Positions 42,916 to 64,000 of a DNA stretch of 64,000 nt are shown here, one piece after another. Source of the DNA: Candidatus Omnitrophota bacterium (lineage in GTDB: Bacteria; Omnitrophota; Gorgyraeia; Gygaellales; Profunditerraquicolaceae); NCBI GenBank assembly GCA_022710715.1, contig JAKLGJ010000003.1, positions 89,083 to 153,082 on the forward strand, read 5' to 3'. A program made the translations under genes and the position numbers. Within the stretch, counting starts at the first letter, position 1, and each line of letters opens with the position of its first letter. The notes under the pieces were generated by a model that saw only the letters and a list, made by a program, of their open reading frames with translations, searched no databases and was not told where the DNA came from.

Positions 42916-45900
42916 TTACAATAAGGCTATGAGTTCTTTCAGGTCTGATGGAGTTGAGATAGCGCGCTCTTCTTCCATCTCCAGGATCGCGCTCACGCAA
43001 TCCACCACCTGCTTTTTCTGCTTCAAGGCATCCTGCCGGCCTGCACACGCCACCAGCAATTCTTTCATTTCCCGGCAGGGCATCTCGCCTTTAGCCATGG
43101 TTTTGCGGATATCCGCCCAGCGTTGATCCAATTCCGCCAGGCTCAATCCGGCCAGTGCTCCGGCAGCGGCTGCGTCAATCGGCGCGACAGCCGGCAGCGA
43201 CTGCACGGGCAGCGCCCGCATATCGATACCGCCGAGATCCGCAGGCGCCTGGGCATTCTCAACCGGCAATCCGCCATTCAGCAGGGCTTTCTCAACAGCC
43301 AACCGGACATACTCGTCCAGGATCTCTTCTCTGGACTTGCCGCTGTCGATCAGCGCCACCAGCATGGGGAAGAACGGCTGATTCCAACTAAGTCCGGCAA
43401 GTTCGCGCATCACGAACTCACTACGCCGCCCATAATAAGCCAGCGGAGCGATCATCTTATAAATACTATACTCTTCAATGCCCGCAGCTTTTCCCTGAAG
43501 CATCAGTTCGTTCGCAGCCTGCAGGCCGCCTTCCACCTTGATCAACTTACCGAGATGATTTTCTTCACGTTTATTCAACGCCTGTTCGAATGCGGCGATA
43601 GCGAAGAAACGTTCTTTTCCGCTATCCCCGACCAGTTGTTGATTGACCACATCGGCATTGAAATCGTTGCAAAGCGCCTCATACACCACCGTAGACATTG
43701 CTTCGGAAGCCAGGTTAACCTCGGGATGATTCTTAGCTGCGCTGAACACCGCCACCATCATCCTGGCCGTTTCCGCGCGACGGCGCGTACCGCTCAAACG
43801 GAAGATATTGGCGTCAATATTCAATGACAGCGGATACGCCATCCCGGGCTTGAATCCCGCTTCTGTCATCAACGGGATCAATTGTACCAATTCAGCGCTG
43901 AATGCTTCGGCCTCCCGGACGGAAAAACTCCGTTCCAGCGTGCCCCTGAAAATGCTCTCCAGAATGTTATTAGTCATCACTGCATTGATGCCATTTCTCC
44001 GCATGACCGGCAGCAATTTGATGACCGCCTCTCGCATTTGCGCGCCTTCTTCAGGATGCATAGCCTCAACAGCGACGACGATTTCATTGATATCATTCGG
44101 CCCCAACCCCGCTCCGGCCAGTTGCAGAATCAGCCGGCCGTTTTTCTTCAATACCCCGGCGCTCTGTTTCAAACCCTTAAGCCCCTCAAAAACAGACTTG
44201 AATACGGCGTACGAACTCTCCTTCTTGCCGCCGTCAGTACTTTCCGTTGTTGCAACCTGCCGCTTCCAATCTACAGCTGCAAGAACTTTGCATAGATCCA
44301 GCTCGTAGCCGGCCATCGAAACCACATCATCGACCAATCCACTGGTCTTAGCTTCCTGCACTTCAGCCTCATCGGGACCGGCTGCCACCATGAATTTCAG
44401 CGGCCGCCGCTCTCTGCCATTGGCCCGATCAAGCTTGTCGAGCTGGCGGACAAACCAGCTTCCGTTTTCCTTGATCAACTTCGGCATCAACTCATCGAAC
44501 TTTTCCCAAAATTCGTCTTCGCGCATCGCCCGGGTGAACTCCGCTTCGTTGCGATCGAGCCCGAACCGTTCGAACTGCTTCCACGTCCCGCCCATCGGGA
44601 AATCGTTATCCGAGATGACGATATCGATGCCGCCGCGCTCCTGCGTCACCGCCTGATACAGGCCGAATGCGGTATAAGCGTCGCCGGCGACAAAGATATT
44701 TTCCGGTTTCACTCCGATCCCCGCCAGTAATTGCTCGATACCTATCTGCCAGTCGATTTCGTCTATCACCACCAGAACTTTCTTATCCCGGATCTGCTCG
44801 CCGATCTTCTCCGCCACCAACGGCACCAGCACAGTTTCGACCAGAGGCCGGTACATATAGGAAGTAGTCTTTCTCGATTGCTCGACAGCAGCGATCGCTT
44901 TATCGAGAGTAACCGGCACGGTTGCCCCGCTATGAGATAAGCGTCTTGCCTCTCCGGTCAACCTGTCTGCTCCGGCGGCAAAAGCTGTTTTGATCCCGCT
45001 AACGATCTTCTCGCCTGTCGACATTTCCTCCTCGAAAACAAACCCGGCAGCTTCAGCCAGGTCCCGGACTACCATGGGAATGGTAATCTCCATTCTCGGT
45101 TTGCTGACTATCGCCGCGATCATTCCCCTGGACTTGGCCGCCTCGGCACCCGACTCTTCCGGATCGGCGCCGGACGTCCAGATGATCGGGATATCGATCC
45201 CCTGCCCTTTGTTCACCTGCTGAATCTGATCAGCCAGCCACAAGCCATCTTTCTCCAGATGCTCGGCGCTGAACGGCATGCTGTGGTCGGTGCTGACCAG
45301 ATCGAATGCGCGGCCCTGCGCGATCGCTTCCCGGTACTTCTCCAGTGCTTCCACCGGATTGCCCGCTGTTTCTATATCGGAAAAACCCAGCGAACGGTAC
45401 ATAATGGAAACGAGTTCACGCATTGCTTTTTCATCATCCACCACCAGGATACGCTTATCGCGCGCGTATTCCCGGACATCCTTTTTGACCAGTTCAATCA
45501 AACTAAAACTCAATCTATCGTATTCACGCTGATTGCGCGTTTGCATGGCGAGCGTATACGCATCTTTTATCTCCTTCGCGCGCGCGCCGCCGTCGCCGGG
45601 AATTTCCGCCACCGCTAATCCGTCCAGTGCCGACTGTCCTGCCGCGAATTCTTCCAAAACGTTCTGACGCTGGAACAGCTTATGTTCCAGGCTCTTGATC
45701 TTCGCTTTGCTTAATTTCATCCTTCTAGCCAATCCTGCGTCGCGGACTCCGCCCCTCATCCGCTGCACTTCCATATCCGCCAGACGCTCTTTTTCTTTAA
45801 GAAGGATCTGCTGCCATCTGGCATAGTTCTTCCCGCCGTCCAAAGAACCGACCAGGAACACGTCGTCGGCAGCCGGAATAACCCGCTCATTGCCCTTGTA

Positions 45901-48900
45901 CTGGCCGTTGGGATCAAGGCCGTCTTTTCCGACAATAACCAGCCACAACCCGATATCCTTGCCGTCCCTGTCGACGATTGCAGCGGTATCATAGACTTCG
46001 CCGCCGTTAACCTCGGCCTGCATCCAGCTATACCCGTTCATGGTCAGGACACCGAGATTTTCCAGTTCGTGAAGCAAAGCGAAGCGGATTTCCTGCCTCG
46101 TATCTCTATTAACCGCTTCATCCGTATATACGTTAATAAAGATATTGTCGCCTTTTTTAAGCTTCGACCAATCGATGGTCTGATCTTTACCGGCGTACTC
46201 TTTAGCTTTTTTTACCGAGATGACCGGATCCTTGATGCCGTTTTTGGCCAGAATACTCTCCAACTCGTCTATAACGTTCACTTTGTTGGTATAGAGCAGC
46301 GGCGACATAAACTCTACCGGTAACAGGAACGACGCGCGATTAAGGATTGCGCCGGGCTGTTCAAGAGTCAACCGGTCCTCCTTCTCCTCTTCATCAGCCT
46401 GAAAGGACCCAATAGAATAGTCTCTTTTGAGCATGCTCATGATATCAGGCAGTTTTTGATTTATTTTGTGGTTAACATAGCGGCCTGCAAGAAACACCCC
46501 GACGATCCCGGCGAAGACGCCAAAATACACCGCAGTAGCAACACCCAGGAATTGCATGATTATTAAAGCCGGAATAGCAACGAAGCCGAACCCATAAATG
46601 CTGGTTGCCGGAAAAATCCTCTTGCCCATGATATATTCCAGCAACTCGACGTCCGGAAGATTGTCCATTTGGTTCCTGAACAGAACCTCGTTGACAGTAA
46701 CAATGTCCAAGTCCTTTTCGGGGATGCTTCTCAACTCCTTGATCACCTCGTTGACCGGCCGCGAATTCCTGTCCAGGGTTTGATCAAGGAACAGGTTCGT
46801 CCCTATTTCGCGAACGAAAGCGTCCAACGCCAGATATCTTTTGGCACCGGTGAATAAAGAATACGCACCTACCAGCACCAATGGCACCCCTGTTATCAGA
46901 CTGCCGATGGTTGTGGCAGTCAGCAGCAGAAAAGCGCCGGCACCGGCAATCGTCGTATACATCCCGAGAGCAAGCATAGATTTCTTCCGGGCTTCGGCGA
47001 ACAATGCTCTTAAGGCAGTGAGGCTGCGCGCGCTGTTAAGCCCTTTCCTCTGCATGTCGAATACGGTTTTGTATACTTCATGCGCGGGATATTTGTCCGC
47101 TTTAGCGTCGATCCCGGTGAACTGCTCTTCTATCAGCTTGTTCTCCTGTATCTTCTTGAGCGTCTCTTCTTTCCCGCCGTCCTGAACCTCGCCTTCCACT
47201 TCAGCCCTGGTCTTTTTGAACTGATCGTTTACTCGTTCAACCGTCAGATATCCGCCCAGATAGACAATCCCTGCAACGCACAATCCCAGCACCACCCCCA
47301 ATACGCCCATTATCGGCGAGATCATGCCTACCAGGACAGCCCCTATCAATCCGCCGGAGGCAATCACAGGCGCTGCGGCAAAACCGCTCCAGAGCATCTC
47401 ACGCGTCCTTAAGAAGCCGGCATATCTTTCGATCGCCCCGGGTTCCTGCTTCAGTTTATTCACCAGGAACCTGAATTCCCGCTCCATCTTTTCCCTATCC
47501 CTGCGCAGGATATCGGCATAATAGGCTTCACGTGACGGCTCTTTCAGCTTGTGCCTGTCATAATACCCTTCGTCGAAATTATATACGCTCATAATCGCTT
47601 TCATCTGCGCGTACACCCGCCGGTTGCCGCCGTCGCTAGTTCTTTCGTCTGCCTCGTCAACGATCCGGCCGTCTTTTTCCCGCGCAAACTTCTCCGCCAG
47701 CTCGACAATATCCTTAACGCCGGCCTCGTCCATCGCGCGCTTGATCCCCTTGACTGCGGATATGACCATGGCTTGCGAGAAAGCGTCGTTGGAGTAATCT
47801 CTCCAGGCAGGATCAGGATTTATTCCGCCTTTATTGAGGATGAGCGTTCCGATGCTTCGTGCATGTCCTAAAACCTCTTTTTGCCAGCGCACGTAGGCAG
47901 CCAGGCCGAAAGCCGTCACCGCCCCGACAGCCGCGACCAGGCCCAGGGGATGCGCGATGAACATCACGAACCCTGCGGATCCCAGCACGCCTAAACCGAT
48001 CAATCCCGGGATGCTGTATTTCGCCCGATCCTGTCTTTTTTGCGCGAAGGCAACGTACTCCGACAGCTCCTGGTCGGTATACTTCTTCGCGGTCAGATAG
48101 TTCCTCGCTCCTTGTGCGGCTTGATCGATCTGCCCGACGACGTCGGACTCTCGAGACGCATTGCTCTGCAGCAGAATAAACAATCGTTCGAGCTCGTCAG
48201 TAAGCGCGTTCCAGCGCTTGCGGGTTTCGGACGTGATTGTGATTGAAGACGCCTTCAACGTGCCGCCGTCGACGGCTTGCGGATCAACCGCATCGGTCAT
48301 CGACGCGGGGATCTCTATCCTGGTCACCCCGGTAACGACATCCTTGGTCCTGTTCACTTTCCCCGCCCAATAAAAACTCCTGGCATACGACCGGTAGCTT
48401 TCTCCGGTCAATCTGCCCCGGATATACCCATCCGATATATACCGCGACCCGCTCGAGTACTCGTCATTGGCCAGGATAACTTCCATGCGCTGTCCGTTAT
48501 TCAACACTACCGTAACCGGGACCCCGTACAGAGCGACGGATTTAAAATCCAGCGAAATCTTATCCCAATCCGACTTTTTCAGGAGCGCTCGTTTAGTGTA
48601 CGTTCTGGGGCTCATCAGCTTGATTACCGCCGTAAGGCTGGAGCGCTGGCGCTTTTCCAGTTCGGGATTTTCAGCCATCGTTTCATAGATCTTGACCGCT
48701 GCCGGCCGGAACATGGCCAGCTCAACCAGCCTGTGAATGAGCGTTCTGAAAGTTTCCGCATCATACGAATCGGTTCTATCGATGAAATCCCACTTATCCC
48801 CGAAATGCAGGTGATCGTATCTCTCGCGCACATCCCTTTCCGCCGCTTCAAACGCGCTGTCTATACGGTCCTGAAGCGAGCCGCCGTCGTTAACTTCGGC

Positions 48901-51900
48901 GGACTGCTCGTCAGACTTCTCCTCCGGCGGGGCCAGGAACTTAACCGTCACCCGGTACTTGCTGGTCGGCGAGCTTATCTTGAACGTTCCTGCCGGCGAT
49001 ATCAGGATCAGGTTATCAGAGCCTTCTTCCAGATAAATCTTCCAATCGCCGGTATAGCTGATCTGAAAAGGAACGACATATTCTCTCTGGACCTTGTCGG
49101 TTTCGGTAATCTTCGTTTGCTTGACTTTATTCAGAGAAGAAATGATCAGCGTCTTTTTACCGTTATCCCTGTACCAGACAATAGTCCCATGCTTACGGAA
49201 AGGCACAACCAGCAGATCAGCGCGCACCGCCTTGTATAACTCATCCAGCGCTTTGCCTTCCGCGCTATTGCCCTCCGAGCTATTTTCGAATTTTTTCGCC
49301 CGGATAGCCAGACCGCGCAGAACGTCGGCTGCGCGTATTGCATCTTCGCGACTATCCACCTCCGCCAGCTTGATCTCCTGCGCCTGCGTCGCATCATCCC
49401 CGCCGTCGTTACCGGCAGCATCATCGGCAGACGCGTCTTCTGCAGTCTTCAACATCAGGGCAATACCGCGCGCGCCTATCATCGGGTCGGATTCACCGGT
49501 CAAAGTACCCATTGTAAGCATGGACCTATATTCATCGGACTTGACAGGTTCCCGATACTGCGCATGATCAACGTGAACCATAAGAAACGGCGCCAGGGCG
49601 TTCGCTTTCCGGTCTATCCCCGTGATCGCTTTAAACACGTTGTCGTAAATCGATTTGCTGTCGAGGAACGCATACAGAATAGAATACAGCTTCATTTGTT
49701 CCCGCGGAGACCAGTTTTCGTTCACCACTTCATTCCACGTCTTCCCATAGGTGATAGCTTCCGCTGCAAAAAATATCTTGATCCGCTGGCGGATAGTCAA
49801 CCCGTCTTTTACCATTAATCCGCCATCCATACCCCTGAACGAACCGGGACCGTCTCCCCGCGCCGGCGGCTCCACTTCGCCCATGGTCCGCAGCACCTCG
49901 ATGGCGTCGCGCAGTTCCATAGCATAGATCTCTGAGCTACGCTGCGCAACATCCTGCGGTTCCACCTCAACGGCCAGAATATCCCTTCCACGATGGATCA
50001 CCGGCAACCCGTCTTCGTCAGTCTGGCTACCGCTGATATACAATCGCTCCGGCATCAATTCGAGGTATGGCGTGATCGCGGTGCGCTTGAATGCCGGCTG
50101 CATCTTGATCTGCGCAGCGACCTGCTGCAGCTGGAGATACTCCCGCGCGCCCGACTGCTCGCCACCGCGCACTTTGGCCAGGCCCCAGTCCCACAAAGCC
50201 ATCGCCCAGCGGTCATACAGCGAGACCTCGCTTGCCAGTTGTCCGCCGTCGTTGTCCGTTTCGCGCGCCGGGATCTCCATGCCCACAATCCCGCCGACTG
50301 CGCCGGTAGACTTGCGCTCATGACCGGCCAGATAAAAAATATGGCTGCGCGGCTGCTCTTCTCCGGCATATTTCCCGAAGAAGCCGTTGTTGGTATAGCT
50401 GGTCCTGTTAGAAAGAATTACTTCTTTTCTCTGGCCGTTCTTGAACACCACGGTAACCGGAATGCCGTACCTGCTCACCAGGCCGATGTCTTCAGCGACC
50501 AGATCTTTTTCCGCAAACGTATCGACCTTATTCAGAAGGTCCTGAACGGAATAACTCCTCGGCCGCAGCAATTCGACCGCCTGCTGCAGGACAAACTGCT
50601 GGCGCTGGCTCATGCCGCCTTTTTTGAGCATCCGCTCATATTCTTCTACCGCCGCAGGTTTATACAATGCCAGGTCGATCAGCCGGTGGATCACGGTCAA
50701 TTCCTTGCCCTCGCTGTAATGCTTGCGCATGGATTTATACATTTCCCGGTCGCTGAAATGCAAAGTGCCGAATTCCCTGTCCAGTTCTTCTTCCGCCGCA
50801 TCGAATATTATATCGATACGGTCTTTGATCGTTCCCCCGTCGTTATCGGCGTCGCGCGCCGGGATCTCCATGCCTACGACCCCGCCGATCGCGTCGGTTT
50901 CCCCTTTGAAAGGCTTGCCTCTCCAGTACAACAGCATCATCCTGTCGTGCTCATCTCCGGCGTACTTCACATAGAACTTACCGTTGCTCAACCATTCCGG
51001 CCCGTGATCATAATGGCTGTTGTACAGAAACACTTCCTGCCTCTTGCCGTTCTTGAAAATGACCGTAACCGGAATACCGTAATCGCGCACCATACCCAGG
51101 TGATCGGCCATTTCCCGCGATATTTCTTTCTTGCTGAAATCCACTTTCCCGTACACCCGCGGAGTCAAAAGATCAACTACTTTGGTTAATGCCGCCCGGT
51201 CGCGCTTATTCGTCCCGGGATCAGCCAGCAACTCTTTGTAGAGGTCCAGCGCTTCCGGGATAATGATACCCATGGTCACCAGCTCACCGATAAGCAAGCG
51301 TTCGATCTTATCCCGGTACTCGTCAGACAAACTCATATAGAAATATTTTTCCCGGTTATGCAAATTATTGTACTCCTGCGCAAATTCCTTATCCGCGGCT
51401 TCGAATACGCGCCGCACCCGGTCGCGCATCCGCTGCCGAATCGTCCCCCCGTCGCTGGCCTCCGAATTGAGGACTTGCTCGGCCGTCGCGTTAGTTTTCG
51501 CCATCTGATAGGTAAAAATAGCCGGCAGCCAGGCAAAAAATGCGGTGGCGGCGAGGCCAATTTCCAGGCTGTGAGTGAACAAACCGCCAAAAATTCCGCC
51601 TATAGCGATGAACAATCCACCTATGATCATGCCTATGGCCATCATCCAGTTTTTGGCCCAGTAGAAATTACTCTTACCGCGGGATCTGGAGTAAGAATCA
51701 CCGGCGGTATCGGTATAAGCGTTCAACCCACCCACCAGGTCAGGCGCATGTAAAATTGACGATATCAAATAGAACATTCCAGGATACAAGCCGAGAATGC
51801 TGGCTGTGATAAAATCCGTAAATATTTTAGTCGTGGCCAATGACGGCACAGCCAGCATACTTACCACCAGTGCAACCGGCAGAACAAAATAAATCAGCGG

Positions 51901-53172: not shown

Positions 53173-53228
53173 CTTTTACTCCTTTTTAAAGTTTCAATTA
53201 AGTGAAAATAAAAAACGCCGCGATCTTT

Positions 53229-53251
53229 TTAGAACCGTGGCGTAATTCTAA
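53229..53251. promoter_or_regulatory. Palindromic site TTAGAA-CCGTGGCGTAA-TTCTAA, about 60 nt upstream of the B1 start codon
   Basis: Its counterpart upstream of B2 at 62565-62589 reads TTAAGAA-CCGTGGCGTAA-TTCTTAA. The spacer is identical and the arms carry compensatory changes. Confidence 0.5.
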
Positions 53252-53324
53252 CAGAAAATTTGTTCCTGTGTTTGAAAACGCTTTCAGCTTTTTATATAAA
53301 TAAGTATACCCTATAAAAAGCTAA

Positions 53325-56300: not shown

Positions 56301-59300
56301 GTTCTGCAGAACATCCAGCATCGCGTACATAACTATTTCAATATCACCGCTGTAGTCCTTTAAGATGTTAACGATATTAAGCTTATCGTGAAATTCTCCT
56401 AATGTTGCATTGCGCTGATTAAGCTCCTGATTATAGAATCTGATCTCGACATCCTGGACCTTCGTTCCTCCGTCAAAAACGTCCGCGTCCTGTTCAATCG
56501 CCGAAGCTAAAATCGTGAATAAAGCAGCAACTGCAGCTTCTTTGGCTGCTTCATTTTCGTTATTACTGCCTATTATCCTGACCATCGACATGGCTTCATC
56601 TAGATTACTATCCACTGCGGTCTTTTCACAGGCTCGCGTGACCAGGGAAAAAGCGCCCCAGGTGTAATCTGTCCTCCAATGGCTCCAGGCAATCAAACCT
56701 ATACCCATAAAAGCAAACTCTGGTTCAACCGGCCCCATCCGGGTATACAGATCGGCAAACTCCGAGAGGCCCATTTTAAGTTCGGGAGTCACTTCCACCT
56801 TGGACTTCCCCGAGGCAACATCCCGGAGAAATACTGCAAACTCCCTGGCTTCTTTCTGCACATCGCCTATCGTGCCTTCATCAGCCGCTCTAATATCGTC
56901 AATGCTTAAATATCTAAAATAAGTCTTCGAATTCTGCTTTTTTAAATTCTCGATTATCGTTTTATTGGTAGTGCGCAACGCATAGTCCGCATTATCAGAC
57001 AGTCGTCTGATTGCCAGATCAAGAACTCTGTCGTCTGCGATATCTCCCACAAAAGCATCGTAATTATTCTCGATCAGCTTGATATCATCGCGGAACATCC
57101 TGGTGATGCCTGCGTAGTGTGACGACGCTTGTCCATCTCCTTGAGCGATGAACTGAATAATCCGCAGGCCTCTTTCCATCTGGGGTATCAATTCCCTCAC
57201 GACCTTAGCGCTGCCGCCGTCGGCTACGGCTTCAGGCTGCACGGGTAAGCGAACGGTCTCCAGATCCCTGGCGAAACGATTGAGGTTTTTAATATTTTCA
57301 TTGAGCGTAGCTATACGCGGTTCAAACGTTCTCACCTGCTCCAACTGATCGTTTCGCTGATGAATATAGGGCGCCCACTCTTTAACCTGTTTATCAGACG
57401 GTCTTTCGCCACGCCAAGCAGCTTCAATACTATCGGCAATACGCTTATTCTCCTGGGCCGACAATAACAGTTGCTGTTTGTGCTGAATCGTGAGATCCAA
57501 TTCATCCTGCAAAGTCTGAATAAGCTCGTCTACGAAATTGATAAGCGCCTTCTGGTTCTTGATTCCTTTCAATTCGGCACGCTGATCGGCGGTAAATTCG
57601 ACGGCCTCTTCGATCCGGCCGGCGAATTTCTGCACCTCGCTCTTAGCGTCGAAGATCAACCCGAATTCAGCTGCTTTAAGGATGTCCAACGTTAAATCCT
57701 GCAACGCCAGATCCCCGTGTTTAACCGCAATGCTCTTTATAATTTCTTCTTTATCAGACGGGAAATATACATTCAAACCGTTGGTCCAGGCCAGATAACG
57801 GATATGCTGCTCAATATCCGCATCTTTATCCTTCACCCGTATCGTCTGGAGATTAGGCTTAACCGCCCTTCCTTCCCACAACGAGAGCTCCCAGGCATAC
57901 TTACCGGTCAACAAATCCGGCAACTCGCGAAAATAATACGGAGATTCCCAATCATGCTTGCCGCCGTCATTGAGCTCCGAAACATGCACGACTTCGCCTG
58001 TGTTTCCCACACTTCCGTAGTATACCTGCCCTTCGAGATTATTCTTGGGTAAACCCAGCTGGTTGGCGCGATCCATATATATTGCCGCCAGCATACTTGC
58101 TTCTTGATTAACACTCGAACTGAAAAGCGCGTCCTTAACGCCCATTCCAAAGACTTCTTCGAACGTTCCTTGAATTGTTATCTGCACATCCTGGGCTACT
58201 TCGTGAAAATAGTTGGTTTCTTTGACCGTAAACGTTTTGCCTTTCAGATTCGCCGGCTTGCTCGCATTCTCTCTGCCTTTACCGAATTTGGCAAATTCAA
58301 CCGCGCTGTCCTCCTTAGCCCAGGACAGCGGTTTGCTGATATCATCTTCCGAGACCATATCCGGCTTACCGAACACCTTGAACTCCACCGGCTCGGTGCT
58401 TTTCGCTGCATCTAAAGTCAGTTGGGGAATCGAAGTCCACGCATCTTCAATAGTATCGCCCATCAGCCGTATTGACTGAATAGTATCTTTATAGATCGGC
58501 GCGAACTCGTCGCTGTCAAGATCCTTGACATACAGCCAGAACGGAAAATAATCGTTGTTCAAATATTCGAATTTACAATCCCACTCGACGCCGTCCTTGA
58601 AAACGACAGTGATCTTTTGCCCCTTGAAAGGCTCAACCAGTTTAGCCTGGACGGCCAATCCGAAATTCTCCATTGACAGCCCTGTCCGCAATCCCGATTG
58701 CAACTCCTGGACGGAAGGCAAGCCGGCTTTTTTGACCAGGCGGTCAAGGAAAAACCGGTACATTTTATTGCTTAGTACGATCGCGATCACACCCGCGCCC
58801 ATTGCCGCTGCGAAAGCCAAAGCGAATCCAAACGGCATAAGCGCCGCGCCAAGCACTATAATCGTCGCCGTAGAAACGGCCGCCGAATACTTGATCGCTT
58901 TATCTTTCAGATCTGCGAGTTGAGAATCCGAAAGCTTATCCTTCAAATTCCCGCCGTCTCCGGTTTCCATTCCGTCATTCCTCAGCGAGGTTTCCGGCGC
59001 ATAATTATCTATTATTTTGTCTGTTACCCCCAACAATCCGGTAAATACAACCCCACCCAGGACAATTCCCATCGCATATTGAGCCAAGCTAATATTCGGG
59101 TTAGCGATCATCATATTACCGGCCAAGAATGAGCCAAGGATCATCCGTCCCGGGAAAGTCAACACCAAATAGTCGGTAATCTGACGCACTATTTCCTTAC
59201 TTACTATTTTAGTCGCCATCCATATCAATGCGTCATATGCGAGGCCGCCCACGATACTGCCCATCGCATAGTGCGCGAGAGTATTTGTCGGATCAGTGAT

Positions 59301-62300
59301 CATCGATAGGCTCATAAGGGTCGAACCAACCAGAAAACGTCCGGAGTGAGTAACGGTTAGAAAATCAAAAAGACTCCGGTATACTTCTTTGCTTTTGCGA
59401 TTGCCGCCGTCCGGCGAGCCGACCAGGAACACGTCGTCGGCAGCAGGAATCACCCGCTCATTGCCCTTGTGCTGGCCGTTGGGGTCAAGGCCGTCTTTTC
59501 CCACAATGATCAGCCACAGCCCGATGTCGTTTTTGTCGCGATCGACTATCACTGCAGTGTCGTAAACTTCTCCACCGTTGAGCTCCGCCTGCATCCACCT
59601 GTACCCGCTCATGGTCAGGACGCCCAGATTTTTCAGTGCCTTAAGCAATTCAAAACGGATTTCCTGCCGCGTGTCGGCGTTCACATCCTCATCCGTATAC
59701 ACGTTGATATATATATTGTCGTTTTTCTTAAGCTTCGACCAATCGATCGTTTGATCCTGGCCGGCGTACTCCTGGGCTCTTTTCACCGAGATAACCGGGT
59801 TCTTGATCCCTTTTGCGGTCAGCACCCTCTCCAGTTCGTCGATCACGTTGACTTTGTTCGATTCAAGCAGCGGAGACATAAACTGTTTAGGCAGTGTGAA
59901 CGACTCGCGGTTAAGAATGGCGCTTGTCTCTTGCAGCGTCAACTGTGCTGACCCTTCTAAATCAAGCGGATCAAGTTTAAAATATTTAGGATCTGCATAA
60001 GCGATAAATCCAAGATATCGTCCCACCAGAGTATAAATATTTCTGTCATTAGCGAGGGACGCCATGATTTCCATTCCCGCAAGAATAGCCTTGGCTTTCT
60101 TTGCACTGGCTTGCGTTTCAAAAAGTCCTTCCTCACGCAGCATCTTCTCTGCCGAAGCGACCTTGTTTGATGAATCCCTAACCCGATGAGCGCAAGTACT
60201 CACAATTTGAGCAGCACTATTAAATTCATCTTCATTTAGTTCATGCTCAGTCAAAACTTTAACGATTGCCTGTATCTGTTTTTCGATCTGCTTTCCATAA
60301 GAGCTTAGACTATCCCTATGCACGTCCAAGTGCGATACGCTAGCCAAGTAGTCAGACACAAACTTAGCTCTCTGCGCCGAAACAACAGTCAGCCGGGCTT
60401 CCTTCTCCTCCTCTTCAGCAGCCTGATTGGGAGCAAAATAATACTCCTCTTTGAGCATGCTCATGATATCAGGCAATTTTTGATTTATTTTGTGGTGAAC
60501 ATACCTGGCTGCAAGAAAGACTGCAGCGATCCCGACAGAGACACCCACCATCACCGCCGCAGAGACGCCCAATAATCCCATAGTCATTAAAGCCGGAAAG
60601 GCAACAAAGCTGAACCCAAAAATGCTGGTTATCGGGGAAGTCCTCGTGCCCATGATATACATCAACAAATCGATATCCGTCCGATTCAACATCTTGTTCC
60701 TGGACAAGACTTCTCTGACCGTACCGCGGTTCAATTCCTTTCCGGGAATACTTCTCAACTCCTTGATCACCTCGCCGAACGGCCGCGAATTCTTGGCCAG
60801 GATTGGATCAATGGTCAATTGCGTCCCTATTTCGCGGACAAAGGTATTCAATACCAGATACCTTTTAGCCGATAAAAATAATAAAAAACCGCCTATCAGA
60901 AACATGGGTACCCCTGCTATCAGAGTACCGCTTATAGAAAGGAAAGCGCCCACCCCAAGAATCATCGTAGCCTGACCCATTCCAAGCGCCGATTGTTTCC
61001 GAGCTTCGTCGAACAATGTTTTTAAGGCAGTGAGGCTGCGCGCGCTGTTCAATCCTCTCTCCTGCAATTCAAATACGGTTTTGTATACTTGATTCGCTGA
61101 ATATGACTGCGCTTCAGGCTTGATCTCGTTGAACTTCTCGAAAATCTGCTGATTCTCCGCATCTGCTTTCCCGCCGTCCGGCCCCTTCTCATCCTGTGGG
61201 GGAGCCTTAAATTCTTCGGCGACCCGGTCTCTGGGCAAAGCTGCGCCGCCGGCTTTCAGAGGCATCTTCGACACGGCAAGTGCGAGTTCAGCTTCGAGCC
61301 CATCATCAATAATCCTGCCGTCCGGCTTCACTTTGATCAAACCTTCTTCGAAGCGGGTGCCGGCAGGAATTTCTACGGTCGGACGGGAGATCGCTTCGTA
61401 ATTCTGCGCGCCGCCGGCCTTCAATGTGAAAGCTGACGGATCTATATCGGCAAACCTGATGCCGCCGCTGAAGTACTGGCGGATAATCATGCCCGTGGGA
61501 GTTGAAACAGTCTCGCTGATATTGTATTCGCCCTTCTCGAATGATCTCTTGTAATCATTGAAATACGTGTCCCTGGACCAGGCTTTGGCGCTGGTCAAGC
61601 CGGTCAGGTCGCGCTGGTCGATCTTTGATGCGGCGCTGCCTTCCTGGCCGCGGTATTTCTCCTTGAACCACTGCGCCAGAACCAGAGAATAATACACCTG
61701 GCGCAATGCGGCATACTTTTTCGACGAGTTGACTTCGCGGGTAAGTTTCGGAAGGATCTCTTTACGGATGATCGCGGAAGAATATTCGTTGAGCTGCTTG
61801 ATCTTGGGATCGTTGGACTGGAACAACGCGTTGTTGGGAAGCCAATCCTGCTCCAGCATGACTTTCAAAGTGGCTTTAAAAATGTAAGCGCTGGCAGGAG
61901 TTTCGCGCACCAGGATCTCGCCCGGAACAATCCAGGGGCGGGTGATGGTGGGAATGGTAATGTCCTGACGGCCGAAGATCTCTTCGGCTTTGGAATAAAG
62001 TTTGTTCCAGTAATTCTTCCCCTCTTTGGTCTTGGGGGAAGTAAAAGCAGCCATGTCTTTCTTCAGCTGCAGATCGGCAGCAAGCAGAATACGGCCGACT
62101 TCGGTTCTCTCCAGCCAGGGGTCGATAACCTGATCTTTGGCATCCGGGCGCAAATTAACCCAGAAAGTGGAATTCGGCAGAGCGATCCCTATATTGAAAT
62201 AGGAAACCAGTTCTTTAGTGGTTAGTTGGACCTGCTGCGGCTTGATCTTGCGCGCATCGCCTTTGTCCAGAAGCAGGTTGAAATCCTGGCTTTTCTGGTC

Positions 62301-62468
62301 AAAGCTGATGCTGCGCAACTGCACCGGGCGGAATTTGTCCGGGGCGACATAGCCGTTGATGTATGTCGGAATGTTGAATTGCGGAGCGACTTGAGCGAAA
62401 CCTGATTGTTCAAGAACCAGACAGAAAACTACTGCGAATGCGACAATGCGTTTTACTAATTTGAACAT
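53397..62468 (-). CDS. Giant modular membrane/surface protein B2, about 3020 aa (3036 aa from the track's start at 62507). It is a paralogue of B1.
   Basis: I prefer the ATG at 62468, which has an AAGGAG RBS 7 nt upstream and gives MFKLVKRIVAFAVVFCLVLEQSGFA, aligning with the B1 N-terminus. The family B N-terminal domain is at about 61420-62468. The central shared block is at about 59400-61180 (TM cluster plus LTLQETSAILN...FLVGSPDGG), with near-identical DNA stretches to B1, for example 46441-46470 versus 60458-60487. It has multiple internal TM clusters. HEAT/ARM-like alpha-helical repeats occupy the C-terminal third. The family B C-terminal domain is at 53397-53715. Confidence 0.8.
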   Translation of the reverse strand: MFKLVKRIVAFAVVFCLVLEQSGFAQVAPQFNIPTYINGYVAPDKFRPVQLRSISFDQKSQDFNLLLDKGDARKIKPQQVQLTTKELVSYFNIGIALPNSTFWVNLRPDAKDQVIDPWLERTEVGRILLAADLQLKKDMAAFTSPKTKEGKNYWNKLYSKAEEIFGRQDITIPTITRPWIVPGEILVRETPASAYIFKATLKVMLEQDWLPNNALFQSNDPKIKQLNEYSSAIIRKEILPKLTREVNSSKKYAALRQVYYSLVLAQWFKEKYRGQEGSAASKIDQRDLTGLTSAKAWSRDTYFNDYKRSFEKGEYNISETVSTPTGMIIRQYFSGGIRFADIDPSAFTLKAGGAQNYEAISRPTVEIPAGTRFEEGLIKVKPDGRIIDDGLEAELALAVSKMPLKAGGAALPRDRVAEEFKAPPQDEKGPDGGKADAENQQIFEKFNEIKPEAQSYSANQVYKTVFELQERGLNSARSLTALKTLFDEARKQSALGMGQATMILGVGAFLSISGTLIAGVPMFLIGGFLLFLSAKRYLVLNTFVREIGTQLTIDPILAKNSRPFGEVIKELRSIPGKELNRGTVREVLSRNKMLNRTDIDLLMYIMGTRTSPITSIFGFSFVAFPALMTMGLLGVSAAVMVGVSVGIAAVFLAARYVHHKINQKLPDIMSMLKEEYYFAPNQAAEEEEKEARLTVVSAQRAKFVSDYLASVSHLDVHRDSLSSYGKQIEKQIQAIVKVLTEHELNEDEFNSAAQIVSTCAHRVRDSSNKVASAEKMLREEGLFETQASAKKAKAILAGMEIMASLANDRNIYTLVGRYLGFIAYADPKYFKLDPLDLEGSAQLTLQETSAILNRESFTLPKQFMSPLLESNKVNVIDELERVLTAKGIKNPVISVKRAQEYAGQDQTIDWSKLKKNDNIYINVYTDEDVNADTRQEIRFELLKALKNLGVLTMSGYRWMQAELNGGEVYDTAVIVDRDKNDIGLWLIIVGKDGLDPNGQHKGNERVIPAADDVFLVGSPDGGNRKSKEVYRSLFDFLTVTHSGRFLVGSTLMSLSMITDPTNTLAHYAMGSIVGGLAYDALIWMATKIVSKEIVRQITDYLVLTFPGRMILGSFLAGNMMIANPNISLAQYAMGIVLGGVVFTGLLGVTDKIIDNYAPETSLRNDGMETGDGGNLKDKLSDSQLADLKDKAIKYSAAVSTATIIVLGAALMPFGFALAFAAAMGAGVIAIVLSNKMYRFFLDRLVKKAGLPSVQELQSGLRTGLSMENFGLAVQAKLVEPFKGQKITVVFKDGVEWDCKFEYLNNDYFPFWLYVKDLDSDEFAPIYKDTIQSIRLMGDTIEDAWTSIPQLTLDAAKSTEPVEFKVFGKPDMVSEDDISKPLSWAKEDSAVEFAKFGKGRENASKPANLKGKTFTVKETNYFHEVAQDVQITIQGTFEEVFGMGVKDALFSSSVNQEASMLAAIYMDRANQLGLPKNNLEGQVYYGSVGNTGEVVHVSELNDGGKHDWESPYYFRELPDLLTGKYAWELSLWEGRAVKPNLQTIRVKDKDADIEQHIRYLAWTNGLNVYFPSDKEEIIKSIAVKHGDLALQDLTLDILKAAEFGLIFDAKSEVQKFAGRIEEAVEFTADQRAELKGIKNQKALINFVDELIQTLQDELDLTIQHKQQLLLSAQENKRIADSIEAAWRGERPSDKQVKEWAPYIHQRNDQLEQVRTFEPRIATLNENIKNLNRFARDLETVRLPVQPEAVADGGSAKVVRELIPQMERGLRIIQFIAQGDGQASSHYAGITRMFRDDIKLIENNYDAFVGDIADDRVLDLAIRRLSDNADYALRTTNKTIIENLKKQNSKTYFRYLSIDDIRAADEGTIGDVQKEAREFAVFLRDVASGKSKVEVTPELKMGLSEFADLYTRMGPVEPEFAFMGIGLIAWSHWRTDYTWGAFSLVTRACEKTAVDSNLDEAMSMVRIIGSNNENEAAKEAAVAALFTILASAIEQDADVFDGGTKVQDVEIRFYNQELNQRNATLGEFHDKLNIVNILKDYSGDIEIVMYAMLDVLQNKSTGLRRAAIQKLTEVGNVDVLRAVIAAMQVRQGETYRADPRAERTRITAIRAVADLFRFEPVAAVQSLAAILSKGAIASLEVKREAIWALKRINTQYARDVLHDVLNNNYNENDQESMAVRKQAELALAELDEINGEVSDGGLTKERRVQMARFQELTKQFNAYGKMDFEEKIEIIQQLGKLGYLPAADFIIANFDRSSQGETAIAAEALTMIAVANNDYSILEKAVVYEGLMNNIAFLTGLRETLKAVNPAVIDSLALNSSIALTRFASKNSTISDLTETVNDMVTLVKANDQRKAEMITALLLGSKSAAHVSLRETIVRALGTIFRSEKSINGPALSTFYQLINDPDEARDAQRIREAVAEELVRLINAGIVEDDAFFAESNNPLETNAALKAFADALAHDLKIDRFKAEIVEEMKEGSNGTVDLREVRQFVESRDSAGLKIFFTQMIKNIDGALDDANKKTEKLRANYRSLRNMPMYGSMSLANRTAGQMRNIREEIDVIENSSSNYEAVQAVYRNAIARLDLDDLDGGKDPLVNENISIKLRTLVGEPLIAEIEDMNYMLENKQYAQYLANLMEGIENKDPFAREYVKNKIIFTIGMLRLFIDIEADGALKQRIDAVTGLDEFASSEPARVTLGLINSRIIRTDSQDVSRKIVQEKLGLTLYVPMLLTRFSREQDYIPESGEVKRVSEAITALGKIAPFSIKAQVALLLVMDQAGIKTKNNVQEIAELLWDYNDNGKDILKARALWRILEDGRYDLDETAEALVHIAKAEEKIIAERGLEAAGDQPFVYALIEENIDKLNEPAKKVLFNELGENDGGRFTAIIEKLKSLLKSGPAQAVADAAAAKKTPDNTGGVDFRALPIQSQAVIGAVNPAQILQSMPQAMKMPLAELDAKWLNIQEKVKSGSMPYRELKEFVAVCNARADATQQMHTAVLFIKQILEMEEERALPTAGEMKEIIQLAIS

Positions 62469-62564
62469 GGGAGACTCCTTCTCTTTGTCTCCCCTCCCCC
62501 ACAACATTGTGTTTTAAAAAAAACCCGGTTTTTAAAAGACTCTTTGCTTGCGCAATAGAGATCG

Positions 62565-62589
62565 ATTAAGAACCGTGGCGTAATTCTTA
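62565..62589. promoter_or_regulatory. Palindromic site TTAAGAA-CCGTGGCGTAA-TTCTTAA upstream of B2
   Basis: See 53229-53251. It has the same position relative to the start codon. Confidence 0.5.
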
Positions 62590-62686
62590 ATTGACTAACT
62601 AACTCCTGATTGTACTAACAAGTATACGGATTACTGGACTGATTACAAGACGAAATATCAATATTATTGAAACCGCTTTCAAAACA

Positions 62687-62813
62687 GCAGACGCTTTCCT
62701 CATCCCAATGCGGCACAATGCATTACAATAATATTCTATATACGCCAATTCTTAAGCCGGTAATAATATCATTGCAACCTATTGCCGCATTTAAAGATGG
62801 GGAAAGCGTCTGC
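62687..62813. repeat. 127-nt intergenic inverted-repeat element, copy C (more diverged core)
   Basis: The outer arms GCAGACGCTTTCC / GGGGAAAGCGTCTGC are conserved. It overlaps the stop codon of the deaminase gene by 1 nt and lies upstream of B2. Confidence 0.65.
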
Positions 62814-63295
62814 TAATAGAGTTGTTTGTGGGGGAGGCGGTGCCAGTCGGAGAAAAGCTGACGGCATTCTTTGAGGAGGGAACTGCGCTTGAGGCAGATC
62901 GAGCTTTTGCCCAGCGACTTCAACCTGGCGCTGGAGACTTTGAATTCGTTGAAGCCAATCTTACTGGCATCGGCGATATTCGTGCCGTACACGATCTTGC
63001 CGATCCTGGCCCAATGAATCGCGGCAAAGCACATCGGGCAGGGTTCGGTGGTGGTGTACATCACGCAATTTGATAAATCGAACGAACCGGCCAGCTTTGA
63101 AGCTTTGCGGATAGCGTTGATCTCGGCATGGCAGGTTGCGTCGTTCTTGAGCACGGTGTTGCGCGCCACAGCCAGCACCCGGCCGCGTTTCACAATGCAG
63201 GCGCCGAACGGCCCACCTTCCATGGTCTTCAGATTCTTGCGCGCTTCTTTGATCGCCAGAAGCATGAAGTGCTCATCGTTTTTCTTCATGCTCAT
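62813..63295 (-). CDS. CMP/dCMP-type zinc-dependent nucleoside deaminase (TadA/guanine-deaminase-like), 160 aa
   Basis: CHAEINAI (His-Ala-Glu) and PCPMCFAAI (Cys-x-x-Cys) zinc-binding motifs. The size is typical of the TadA/GuaD family. Confidence 0.7.
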   Translation of the reverse strand: MSMKKNDEHFMLLAIKEARKNLKTMEGGPFGACIVKRGRVLAVARNTVLKNDATCHAEINAIRKASKLAGSFDLSNCVMYTTTEPCPMCFAAIHWARIGKIVYGTNIADASKIGFNEFKVSSARLKSLGKSSICLKRSSLLKECRQLFSDWHRLPHKQLY

Positions 63296-63337
63296 ATTCT
63301 CGCATATTCCCGCTTCAAATCAAGCTAAATCCCGGAC

Positions 63338-64000
63338 TTATAAAATAGCCAGAATTTCCTTCATTGCCGGCGCAGTGACCACAGCAGCGTCCTCTTCCAT
63401 CTTCAATACTTCCATGATCCAGCTTGAAGCGCGTTTAAGACTCTCACAGGCGTCTTTGTTTCCGCCGCAAGCCTTAATATAGGAACGCATTTCTGCGTAC
63501 GGCATCTCGCCGGACTGCGCTCTGGCCTGGATCGCCTGCCACTGCTGATCCAGTTCCCGCACGTTTACCTGCGCCACAGCCCCGGCAACCGCTTCAGCCG
63601 CTACTCCAGAGCCTGCAACCGCAGCCGGCTGCCCGGCCACCACAGGGATCATCCGGAAATCCACGCCGCCGAGATCTTCCGGCGCCGCAGGTTGAACATC
63701 ATCCACCGCTGCGTCCTTCAGCCCGCCATCCAACGCATCGCCTTGAGCCAGCGGTTTCTCGATCTGCCCCAGAGCCTGCAACACGGCTACTGCGTCGCGC
63801 AATTCCATACTCGCGATTTCTCTGCTGTAATCCTTATACTCTTCCAGCGTAAGCTCTTCCTTAGGAGACAAATCCCTCCCCAGCACAACTACCGGGTCGC
63901 CGTTGTCATTCTTCAAGGTCGAGCTGATATACATTCTCTCCGGAAGCAATTCCTGTAGAGGCGTTTTAACGGTTTCTAAGAATTCGCGGCTGCCCGTAAT
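63338..64000 (-). CDS. C-terminal 203 aa of a third family B giant protein (B3), which continues beyond the window
   Basis: It ends with the family B C-terminal domain (GGVDFRMIPV...ELDQQWQAIQARAQSGEMPYAEMRSYIKACGG...IMEVLKMEEDAAV...KEILAIL). It also carries an MPERMYISS...YSREIASMELRDAVAVLQALGQIE module that is internal in B1, followed by a DGG. Confidence 0.7.
   Translation of the reverse strand: MTGSREFLETVKTPLQELLPERMYISSTLKNDNGDPVVVLGRDLSPKEELTLEEYKDYSREIASMELRDAVAVLQALGQIEKPLAQGDALDGGLKDAAVDDVQPAAPEDLGGVDFRMIPVVAGQPAAVAGSGVAAEAVAGAVAQVNVRELDQQWQAIQARAQSGEMPYAEMRSYIKACGGNKDACESLKRASSWIMEVLKMEEDAAVVTAPAMKEILAIL

Follow-up and report, generated by a model that had tools for sequence, protein, structure and literature searches.

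The proteins that come closest to those described here are the giants of the Omnitrophota, among which 'multi-enzyme' and Archaeovorin classes have been distinguished (West-Roberts 2023, bioRxiv 10.1101/2023.11.21.568195; Nielsen & Lui 2026, bioRxiv 10.64898/2026.06.07.730766). Many of them have been read as membrane-anchored multi-enzyme proteins (Nielsen & Lui 2026). T2SS genes were reported near the giant genes, and C39-mediated cleavage was proposed without cleavage points; whether and where the giants are cut is stated to be an open question (West-Roberts 2023). Earlier accounts portray the giants as little conserved and mostly unannotated, and in the available parts of the published descriptions no shared N-domain, C-unit or DGG delimiter of the kind found here appears.

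Other systems are comparable in their logic. The T9SS CTD, about 80-100 aa long and phylum-restricted, is folded at the C-terminus as an Ig-like beta-sandwich and is found together with a Sec signal peptide on diverse cargo. The dockerin is a small conserved terminal module on unrelated secreted enzymes; it has duplicated Ca-binding loop-helix repeats, pairs with cohesin and is a docking handle, not a membrane anchor. MARTX proteins are very long and secreted, with conserved N- and C-regions framing an effector mosaic reshuffled by recombination; they have RTX/glycine-rich repeats and a T1SS signal, and a built-in cysteine protease cuts the linkers between the domains. Substrates of the double-glycine peptidases (C39; PCAT, ComA) carry Gly-Gly just before the unit boundary, at a single N-terminal site after an amphipathic helix, and the peptidase is fused to an ABC transporter.

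The window analysed here (the whole stretch of 64,000 nucleotides) contains three neighbouring genes, B1, B2 and B3, whose products share with the giants the phylum, a signal peptide with TM helices, and a tiling of kinase, PGM, ROK, HEAT, receiver and GNAT domains; some giants have a C39 domain near the N-terminus, as A3572 has here. In origin, domain mix and SP+TM architecture B1-B3 would fit class 1 of Nielsen & Lui, but at 2.9-3.4 kaa they fall below the cut-off of that catalogue, which is at least 10 kaa. They are paralogues in a large, previously undescribed and Omnitrophota-restricted family of 'bookend' proteins, in which fixed N-terminal and C-terminal caps enclose an interchangeable interior. 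A complete member consists, in this order, of a signal peptide, an N-domain of about 320 aa running to SGG, the interior, and a C-unit at the very C-terminus. The coordinates are collected in Table 1.

Table 1. Features of B1, B2, B3 and the neighbouring gene A3572 (nucleotide positions in the window unless residues are stated)
Feature	Position	Strand	Remarks
B1 gene	42916-53172	minus	shares N-domain and C-unit with B2 and B3
B1 signal-peptide-like N-terminus, residues 1-25	53098..53172	minus	MFKMINRTIAITLVLALVLEQSGFA, followed by Q; logo of family N-termini
B1 conserved N-terminal domain, residues 26-345	52138..53097	minus	ends R.Y.SGG
B1 variable interior, 13 DGG-delimited cassettes	43234..52137	minus	13 DGG observed, 1.3 expected
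B1 DGG codons, first seven	51970-78, 51445-53, 50833-41, 50242-50, 49819-27, 49399-407, 48880-88	minus	
B1 DGG codons, remaining six	48262-70, 47626-34, 47173-81, 45832-40, 45586-94, 44227-35	minus	
B1 module of ~200 aa, three copies	residues 577-780, 781-977, 1432-1637		repeats 33-39% identical
B1 receiver domain	residues 2575-2692		Response_reg, 34.4 bits
B1 C-unit linear motif GGIDMRALP, residues 3314-3322	43207..43233	minus	
B1 C-terminal four-helix bundle, residues ~3345-3418	42919..43140	minus	
B2 gene	53397-62507	minus	likely true start ATG at 62468
B2 signal-peptide-like N-terminus	62394..62468	minus	MFKLVKRIVAFAVVFCLVLEQSGFA, followed by Q; AAGGAG upstream
B2 conserved N-terminal domain	61461..62393	minus	BLASTP to B1
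B2 variable interior, 9 DGG-delimited cassettes	53733..61460	minus	9 DGG observed, 0.7 expected
B2 DGG codons	61170-78, 59403-11, 58950-58, 57960-68, 57213-21, 56466-74, 55872-80, 54702-10, 53835-43	minus	
B2 C-unit	53400..53732	minus	motif GGVDFRALP 53706-53732, helical bundle 53400-53627
B3 gene	63338 to beyond window end	minus	runs off window
B3 penultimate cassette	63722..64000	minus	DGG end at 63722-63730; homologous to internal B1 cassette, residues 1028-1118
B3 C-unit	63341..63670	minus	motif GGVDFRMIP 63644-63670, helical bundle 63341-63562
A3572, next giant gene, signal-peptide-bearing	31926-42644		hosts C39 domain
Peptidase_C39 (double-glycine peptidase) domain of A3572	41859..42272	minus	PF03412, 48.5 bits, cutoff 22

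The first-pass annotation postulated an N-terminal domain common to B1 and B2 and a C-terminal module common to all three proteins, and BLASTP bears out both. Residues 1-390 of B1 are 62% identical to residues 14-402 of B2 (E 4e-145), and the C-termini are 39% identical between B1 and B2 (E 2e-19), 40% between B1 and B3 (E 3e-21) and 36% between B2 and B3 (E 6e-19), with 30 invariant columns in the alignment of the three. The B2 ATG given in Table 1 has AAGGAG 7 nt upstream and is the most likely start; the database protein P0123 (3023 aa) is B2 read from it. The full-length B3 is represented by another database entry, P0124 (2870 aa), which agrees at 100% identity with the last 220 residues of B3 in the window: it starts MVKRLISFLIIFSLVVEQSGFAQVAPQ, carries the N-domain and has 8 DGG sites and a GH9 domain at 955-1332. 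Between B1 and B2 the N-domains show dN 0.21 and dS 1.40 (dN/dS about 0.15), and in the C-unit dS is saturated. These are old paralogues under purifying selection, and the likeness of B1, B2 and B3 is thus not an artefact of recent duplication.

A logo of 111 family N-termini has a K/R-rich n-region (-18 to -13) followed by a 12-aa h-region and a nearly invariant predicted cleavage region, [EQ]Q[ST]GFA-Q[VI]A (also written FEQ[ST]GFA-QVA), with the cut between A and Q. The invariant G(-3)-F-A(-1) before Q fits the -3/-1 rule of signal peptidase I. The N-terminus is predicted to be a Sec-type signal peptide with classical anatomy, and it is the sole basis for calling the B proteins 'secreted', a status which stays a prediction. 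The N-domain closes with an invariant R.Y.SGG, which in B1 falls at about residue 345. It was found at 428 loci, nearly all in Omnitrophota and with several paralogues per genome; it has no match in Pfam, NCBIfam or PDB, and its fold is without a solved relative. Profile searches against PDB sequences were negative for the caps, and both give confident folded models.

The C-terminal region had been taken as one domain of about 100 aa. A conserved terminal region is indeed present, but it has three parts: a linear motif, then 20-30 aa of low-complexity spacer, then a helical bundle some 75 aa long. The motif reads GG[IV]D[FM]R.[LI]P (also written GG[IV]D[FLM]R.[LM]P), and its G, D, R and P hardly vary among 46 diverse members. 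The AF2 model has motif and spacer disordered; the motif is extended with a pLDDT of about 50-64 and so looks like a tethered peptide. The bundle is modelled as four helices, all-helical and soluble, with a pLDDT above 90; this fold is generic and uninformative on function. The chain ends ...LKE[IL][IL].[IL]L, with neither a TM helix nor a basic tail.

A word-indexed search with the C-unit gave only 1, then 12 fragments; an exhaustive HMMER scan was required, and it yielded 848 cluster representatives at E<=1e-3 (348 at the stricter E<=1e-10). The C-unit ends no more than 28 aa before the C-terminus in every one of the 151 best hits, on proteins from 81 to 4294 aa long, and its fixed position on proteins differing widely in length and content, as claimed earlier, is thereby upheld. 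The C-unit has no match in Pfam, NCBIfam or PDB. Being conserved well outside this locus and no known domain, it passes on both points on which the earlier proposal could have failed. One candidate for a free-standing C-unit ORF, P0276, was rejected as a contig-edge fragment. Another C-unit fragment adjoins a T2SS pseudopilin gene.

Between the caps the family interior varies from 0 to more than 3000 aa and holds mostly unrelated enzymes, HEAT scaffolds, receiver domains and TM hairpins. The B1 receiver domain has its acidic pocket, and the B1 interior also contains TM hairpins; B2 has a TM-hairpin cassette common with B1 and a HEAT region (HEAT_2 match). Relocation of modules between paralogues, which had been proposed from the letters, is confirmed. 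Residues 1028-1119 of B1 match residues 7-94 of B3 with 43% identity (BLASTP, E 8e-15; E 3e-18 in a second comparison), internal in the one and penultimate in the other, and residues 1973-2452 of B1 match residues 421-1040 of B2, a different place in the chain, with 56-76% identity. Within the latter block the cassette B1 2001-2447 is 60-78% identical in B2 from DGG to DGG, and with dS 0.72 it is younger than the N-domains of the two proteins. Most B1 cassettes are without a homologue among about 230 family proteins. The 'shuffled interior' of the first-pass annotation is therefore right for a few common or relocated cassettes, but most of the cassettes are unique. While purifying selection has maintained the old caps, cassettes have been gained, lost, duplicated and moved between them.

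The units follow a simple grammar in which the N-domain ends in SGG, the cassettes end in DGG and the C-unit starts with GG. DGG is enriched in the family only (127 observed against 41 expected, compared with 40 against 58 in neighbouring genes), and it is missing in 49 of 141 long members; the DGG linker bounds cassettes in about half of the family, this clade included. A logo of 625 DGG sites has A/S/Q/G upstream, K/R just before the Asp and no hydrophobic periodicity. The tripeptide is encoded as GAC-GGC-GGN. A nucleotide-level signal was considered and rejected, because in the window this is mostly generic dipeptide context (GGC before a Gly codon, GAC before Gly); after control for that context a residual excess is left in other genomes only. 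No DNA or RNA site is claimed for this reason.

The two caps are coupled. The C-unit is present in 54 of the 59 N-domain ORFs with a complete C-terminus, and every verifiably complete C-unit protein begins with the family N-terminus. Proteins with the N-domain only exist, and together with the five ORFs lacking the C-unit they indicate that the N-cap has no need of the tag. It should be noted that the earlier annotation had handled as separate features what is here found bound together. In the minimal members P0002 (640 aa), P0051 and P0088 (both about 608 aa) the N-domain and C-unit enclose almost no cargo, and at the syntenic locus of a relative P0002 stands alone where the window has B2-B1-A3572-A4335. 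A dedicated transporter or sortase gene had been suggested as a companion; when 792 ORFs within 10 kb of 78 family loci were clustered, no secretion, transporter, sortase or protease partner recurred. The genes that did recur there are gyrA, an rsmI-like gene and glmS, and some members lie in conserved housekeeping neighbourhoods (gyrA, gyrB, dnaN).

Most of the cargo is of a cytoplasmic type (receiver, ROK, PGM/PMM, HATPase_c, GNAT and NUDIX domains and, in fragmentary family proteins, PGK and GAPDH), which fits badly with a periplasmic or surface location. The flanks of the TM hairpins are rich in K/R (22% against a background of 12%), so that the positive-inside rule would put the flanking cassettes in the cytoplasm, in conflict with an exported N-domain to which they are joined without an intervening TM segment. 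No TM segment separates the caps in 38 of 67 complete members, and in these both caps must be in one compartment. The hydropathy caller is noisy (it split the P0002 hairpin into three); only this fraction was used, and topology from the parity of TM-helix counts was dropped.

In the searches of Pfam and NCBIfam the C-terminal module matched no known sorting signal, as had been stated. Like the T9SS CTD it accompanies a Sec-type signal peptide and diverse cargo and is folded and phylum-restricted, but it is all-alpha, no T9SS genes are present here, and no Por_Secre_tail or type A or B CTD model matched (NCBIfam and Pfam at E<=0.1, Pfam at E<=10). For PEP-CTERM/exosortase and other x-CTERM systems there was no match to an NCBIfam CTERM model and no TM helix with a basic cluster; true PEP-CTERM tails are found on other window proteins (15453-18445), so the system is present, yet B1-B3 do not use it. 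GlyGly-CTERM/rhombosortase likewise gave no NCBIfam match, and after the GG of the C-unit come IDFRALP, a spacer rich in Ala, Pro and Gln and then the soluble bundle, instead of an immediate hydrophobic TM helix. T1SS/RTX is not indicated either: no HemolysinCabind match, no ABC/MFP pair in the window, and a C-terminus that is folded in the AF2 model. The C-unit shares with the dockerin the place and size of a small docking handle on unrelated enzymes, but PF00404 gave no match even at E<=10, a four-helix bundle after a linear motif replaces the loop-helix repeats, and no cohesin-like partner is known for it. The B proteins share with MARTX the great length and the conserved ends around a mosaic; glycine-rich repeats, the CPD protease and T1SS export domains were undetected, the caps are globular domains of other folds, and a protease is at best in the neighbouring gene. 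MARTX-like delivery into a target cell would here be pure speculation.

The likeness to the double-glycine systems lies in GG at -2/-1 of the SGG, DGG and GG-IDFR boundaries and in the C39 domain encoded next door, which can be aligned with the peptidase domain of ComA and retains the catalytic Cys (QYNC/QMDC), His (GHY/LHY) and Asp. The DGG sites differ in being internal and repeated, with small/polar or K/R-rich residues upstream; the amphipathic leader with hydrophobic residues at -4, -7, -12 and -15 was absent at the 625 sites. Moreover, the A3572 C39 forms part of a signal-peptide-bearing giant where the known systems have an ABC transporter, and at 78 other family loci, searched with phmmer to a distance of 10 kb, no C39 domain turned up. 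We infer an association that makes A3572 a candidate processing enzyme for the B proteins.

A sorting or docking role of the C-unit is plausible, and we tentatively propose, as the best of several readings, that the caps are constant 'handling' parts for variable cargo and the C-unit a docking tag that a partner specific to the phylum recognises. Passage of the chain through the inner membrane and its retention at the envelope would fall to the signal peptide and N-domain, and the C-unit, made last and on a flexible tether, would be the folded tag for sorting or assembly via the partner, so that only complete chains would be handled. The tag would resemble the dockerin or T9SS CTD in logic, belong to neither and be no membrane-anchor signal; the GG-ending linkers would act as hinges and might also be cut by a double-glycine peptidase of the kind encoded in the adjacent gene. 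The docking tag is supported by the terminal position of the C-unit in all best hits, the coupling of the caps, the minimal members and the locus with P0002 alone, the members without TM segments between the caps, the classical signal peptide, the confident bundle behind a disordered motif and spacer, purifying selection on ancient paralogues, cassette exchange, the GG grammar and the intact C39 next door. It is weakened by the lack of a recurrent transporter, sortase, protease or C39 at the 78 loci, by the type of the cargo and the K/R-rich hairpin flanks, and by the N-domain-only proteins, the long members lacking DGG and the generic bundle fold. A stricter version, in which a dedicated transporter or sortase-like enzyme reads the C-unit and passes the protein, once exported by Sec, through or onto the outer membrane, perhaps removing the tag as with the T9SS CTD or PEP-CTERM, appears rather doubtful to us. 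The N-terminal signal peptide with an invariant terminal domain on variable proteins, the restriction of the tag to one phylum with many paralogues per genome, the pseudopilin gene beside one C-unit fragment and the T2SS genes near giant genes (West-Roberts 2023) are in its favour, but no machinery is co-located at the 78 loci, the C-unit has none of the hallmarks of known signals (beta-sandwich, TM helix with basic tail, unstructured tail), the cargo is of a cytoplasmic type, and the constant company of the N-domain is something that a tag for export alone could do without.

The cargo, including the receiver domain with its acidic pocket, would be better accommodated if the N-terminal hydrophobic segment were only a tether and cargo, hairpins and C-unit stayed at the inner face of the membrane, with the C-unit as an oligomerisation or regulatory domain. 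The hairpin flanks, the members beside gyrA, gyrB and dnaN and the membrane-anchored multi-enzyme reading of giants (Nielsen & Lui 2026) agree with such a scaffold, which we nevertheless consider improbable, since the charge distribution, 12-aa h-region and invariant G-F-A before Q are what a cleaved Sec signal, rather than an anchor, typically shows, and B3 carries a GH9 cargo. About equally improbable is a polyprotein cut by a C39-type peptidase after the GG of SGG, DGG and GG-IDFR, which would free N-domain, cassettes and bundle and make the caps simply the first and last products. GG at the end of every unit, the family-specific enrichment of DGG, homology blocks running from DGG to DGG, the catalytically intact C39 in the signal-peptide-bearing giant encoded next door and the earlier proposal of C39 cleavage (West-Roberts 2023) all point that way; the missing -4/-7/-12 hydrophobic pattern, the third of long members without DGG and the lack of C39 near other family loci point away from it. 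An extension of this, more speculative and distinctly improbable, is an Omnitrophota polyprotein/effector-delivery system of a new kind, in which Sec-exported chains would be assembled or translocated via the caps and cut at the same three boundaries by the neighbour's exported double-glycine peptidase, freeing cytoplasmic-type enzymes outside the producer, for example in prey cells. It would be MARTX-like in logic with all parts different and, if true, would provide the cleavage points missing from previous studies of the giants. Finally, the movement of cassettes between paralogues could suggest that the ends are conserved as DNA homology arms for cassette exchange or gene conversion, without protein function. 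This was rejected and we give it hardly any credence, as nucleotide identity is only 71% in the N-domain and about 52% in the C-unit, saturated dS and the low dN/dS imply selection on the protein and no usable arms, and both caps have confident folded models.

Both caps are strongly conserved domains that lack annotation: the C-unit is represented by about 850 clusters and the N-domain by more than 400 genomic loci, in a phylum whose giants had been called poorly conserved. As markers they can serve to recognise, demarcate and sort these proteins, and the SGG/DGG/GG-IDFR grammar divides each chain into pieces that suit structure prediction and points to candidate cleavage sites. The natural cargo-less member at the syntenic locus suits experiments on cap function. 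If the C-unit is a sorting or docking tag it would represent a new, phylum-specific class of such tags, and the family offers a handle on how Omnitrophota build and handle very long proteins.

Three neighbouring giant genes of one paralogous family, B1, B2 and B3, lie in the right third of the window, with a cytidine-deaminase-like gene sitting between B3 and B2. The first-pass annotation had proposed a common N-terminus for B1 and B2, a common C-terminus for all three and a module relocated between B1 and B3. BLASTP bears this out: 62% identity over 399 residues at the N-terminus (N-domain), 36-40% (E 1e-19 to 1e-21) at the C-terminus (C-unit) and 43% (E 8e-15) between B1 1028-1119 and B3 7-94; B1 1973-2452 also matches B2 421-1040, differently placed in each protein. 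Among database proteins P0123 is a near-copy of B2, and P0124 (2870 aa) is identical to B3 over the last 220 residues and has the family N-terminus at its start, so that B3 has both caps; a GH9 domain is found in P0124 / B3. P0122, a near-copy of B1 from residue 965, begins within the second of two adjacent copies of a module of ~200 aa, which may be an assembly break.

Features of the window with their positions
Feature	Position (nt)	Strand	Remarks
PilZ gene	6326-6730		
TpsA/TpsB two-partner secretion pair	8629-15257	minus	TPS domain protein 1595 aa; ShlB/POTRA protein 604 aa
Four small proteins beside TpsA/TpsB	15453-18445		PEP-CTERM-like tails; one with CBM96 domain
A4335	18632-31639		giant gene; MgtE_N and DnaJ domains
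c-di-GMP-I-GGC riboswitch variant (Rfam)	31613-31697	minus	60.2 bits, gathering cutoff 59; leader of A4335
Palindrome, ~127 nt	31797-31923; 42787-42913; 62687-62813		three copies
A3572	31926-42644	minus	3572 aa, directly downstream of B1
Peptidase_C39 domain of A3572	41859-42272	minus	48.5 bits
B1	42916-53172	minus	3418 aa
Threefold module of B1	~48262-51444		residues 577-780, 781-977, 1432-1637
GAATTACGCCACGGTTCT	53231-53248; 62569-62586	minus	identical 18-nt motif
B2	53397-62507	minus	likely true start ATG at 62468, AAGGAG 7 nt upstream
B3	63338 to beyond 64000	minus	3' end only in window

The B1 and B2 N-domains have 71% nucleotide identity, dN 0.21 and dS 1.40, and the C-units about 52% nucleotide identity with saturated dS. 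By these values the paralogues are ancient and the caps are under protein-level selection; the idea that the caps are DNA-level recombination arms was rejected on the same values. A TM-hairpin cassette common to B1 and B2 has a dS of 0.72, compared to 1.40 for the N-domain, and was thus exchanged after the N-domains diverged.

The profile search with the C-unit which the first-pass annotation had proposed was done with HMMER over 1.84 billion cluster representatives, and demonstrates conservation outside the locus: 848 proteins match at E<=1e-3 and 348 at E<=1e-10. Among the 151 best matches, which range from 81 to 4294 aa, the unit always ends no more than 28 residues before the C-terminus, and in 117 no more than 5. 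Close homologues of the N-domain number more than 325, and those with a name come almost all from Candidatus Omnitrophica or Omnitrophota; one-genome-per-species collections contain 428 N-domain loci; single MAGs can carry six or more paralogues, and tandem arrays are frequent. The two caps go together: of the 59 N-domain ORFs whose 3' end is intact, 54 are terminated by the C-unit, and all demonstrably complete C-unit proteins begin M.[KR]K....[12 hydrophobic residues][EQ]Q[ST]GFAQ[VI]A. Searches of Pfam and NCBIfam found neither cap, even with permissive cut-offs, and PDB sequence searches with both gave no match. Stand-alone N-domain proteins (P0083, P0094, P0105, P0108) of 342-356 aa end 2-7 residues past the invariant SGG, and the C-unit is also missing from a few long proteins with the N-domain (further examples without it are L055_0, L067_0 and L025_0); the N-domain therefore has an autonomous role.

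A syntenic relative illustrates the arrangement. Window 4966-18379 corresponds gene by gene to JAKPTF010000013.1 from another Omnitrophota MAG (TMEM175, PilZ, three small genes, TpsA, TpsB, PEP-CTERM proteins, CBM96). The next gene there encodes a single family member, P0002, of 640 aa, consisting of N-domain, DGG, one TM hairpin, DGG, about 50 aa, DGG and C-unit; in its place the window has about 44 kb with B2, B1, A3572 and A4335. The caps are thus a fixed frame in which the interior expands.

The family N-terminus, with its basic n-region, 12-residue h-region and invariant G-F-A|Q, looks like a cleaved Sec signal. The N-domain, closed by an invariant R.Y.SGG, is confidently predicted to be an alpha/beta domain (pLDDT 82.7, pTM 0.78). 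The C-unit is composite: it opens with the motif GG[IV]D[FLM]R.[LM]P, which is nearly invariant, and continues with a spacer of 20-30 aa rich in Ala, Pro and Gln; motif and spacer alike come out flexible in the model and are followed by a predicted bundle of four helices (about 75 residues, pLDDT >90) with conserved W, G.MPY, L.EE, T...K and one invariant Cys. This Cys, in the third helix (B1 residue ~3376, in VACAG), has equivalents in B2 and B3 and is kept across 46 diverse members; the mature B1 N-domain has none. The C-unit has no TM helix, basic tail, beta-sandwich or RTX repeats and so stands, as first claimed, outside the known sorting-signal families; with these hallmarks absent, membership of T9SS-CTD, PEP-CTERM, GlyGly-CTERM, T1SS or dockerin is ruled out. 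Elsewhere in the window, small proteins do carry true PEP-CTERM tails.

The interior had been described as shuffled. This holds for cassettes with homologues, which are differently placed elsewhere (B1 1028-1118 is the penultimate cassette of B3, and B1 1259-1431 that of four other proteins), but most cassettes are unique: a search among about 230 family proteins gave a homologue for only 5 of the 21 in B1/B2 (all five from B1) and none for the other 16. The threefold module of B1 shows 33-39% identity between copies. Cargo catalogued in B1, B2 and 17 other members comprises receiver domain, HEAT repeats, PGM/PMM, ROK, HATPase_c, GNAT, APH, NUDIX, Metallophos, M48 peptidase and GH9; PGK, GAPDH and HD domains were seen in fragments.

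Asp-Gly-Gly (DGG), usually in the form [KR]DGG, marks the limits of the cassettes, and homology blocks common to paralogues extend from DGG to DGG. B1 has 13 such sites (1.3 expected) and B2 9 (0.7 expected), whereas none occurs in the neighbouring giants, A3572 and A4335. Family-wide 127 are observed against 41 expected, compared to 40 against 58 in 698 neighbouring non-family ORFs. As 49 of 141 long members lack any DGG it is a feature of a subfamily. With the SGG at the close of the N-domain and the GG at the start of the C-unit added to DGG, all unit boundaries in the B1/B2/B3 clade follow Gly-Gly. The codons are GAC-GGC-GGN at 20 of the 23 DGG sites of B1/B2/B3, and all 20 occurrences of GACGGCGG in the window lie on the minus strand, 18 of them in frame in B1/B2, where about 4 would be expected, but generic Asp-Gly/Gly-Gly context accounts for most of this bias. 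In 85 family ORFs of other genomes (GAC 79% against a background of 31%, GGC 76% against 33%) such context accounts for only part (48% and 46%).

Several non-coding elements were observed in the window. The palindrome, near-perfect with arms GCAGACGCTTTCCCCATC.../...GATGGGGAAAGCGTCTGC, starts 0-3 nt past the stop codons of the minus-strand genes A3572, B1 and the deaminase gene; its RNA is predicted to form a single hairpin (-81 kcal/mol, z = -12), and it may act as a terminator or represent a REP- or MITE-like element. The start codons of B1 and B2 have GAATTACGCCACGGTTCT about 60 and 100 nt upstream, respectively; a sigma-70-like TTGAAA-N16/17-TA[CT]ACT precedes each copy, and the motif was not found in 83 loci of other genomes. 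Since the listed A4335 ATG at 31639 lies inside the riboswitch match, translation probably begins further downstream, at MRALRQ.

The bookend architecture itself is established; its function we infer. The most economical reading, tentatively preferred, takes the caps as the constant parts by which a variable cargo is handled. Export and anchoring would fall to the signal peptide and N-domain, and the terminal unit would be a tethered, folded docking tag that is synthesised last and recognised by a phylum-specific partner. The stricter reading of the first-pass annotation, a sorting signal with dedicated machinery, seems unlikely: among 792 ORFs clustered from 78 family loci the transporter or sortase it had pointed to is not recurrent, nor is a protease, although the strictly terminal position of the C-unit agrees with such a signal. 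Genes that do recur are gyrA (15 loci), an rsmI-like gene (14), glmS (13) and a response regulator (10). One orthologous group (L016, L027, L041, L073 and others) lies in a conserved housekeeping neighbourhood of these gyrA, rsmI-like and glmS genes, with gyrB and dnaN in several loci; one would not expect this of an accessory factor for the surface or for predation.

That the giants are polyproteins cleaved at GG is improbable. C39-mediated cleavage of Omnitrophota giants has been proposed, with cleavage points then unknown (West-Roberts et al., 2023), and A3572, which begins with a signal-peptide-like segment and has a Ser/Thr-rich linker and fewer Gly-Gly than expected (16 against 25.7), carries a C39 domain that aligns with the double-glycine peptidase ComA and keeps the catalytic Cys, His and Asp. 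The link is circumstantial, because no C39 domain is found near the 78 other family loci and the residues around DGG do not show the amphipathic pattern of leaders. Equally doubtful is a scaffold on the cytoplasmic face. The mostly cytoplasmic-type cargo counts against export, as do the uncharged hydrophobic hairpins of 36-60 residues, whose K/R-rich flanks (22% against 12% background) point to the cytoplasm; no TM segment lies between the first hairpin and the N-domain. The signal-peptide-like N-terminus favours export, as does GH9 in B3. Hydropathy-based calls, too noisy in their helix counts to argue from parity, place no TM segment between the caps in 38 of 67 complete members, in which both caps would accordingly be extracytoplasmic.

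Within the open-access papers and preprints covered, those on Omnitrophota giant proteins describe them as poorly conserved and mention neither the caps nor a DGG delimiter. Modular giants of Omnitrophota were known, as were conserved terminal tags on variable secreted proteins; what is new is the two domains and a testable boundary grammar.
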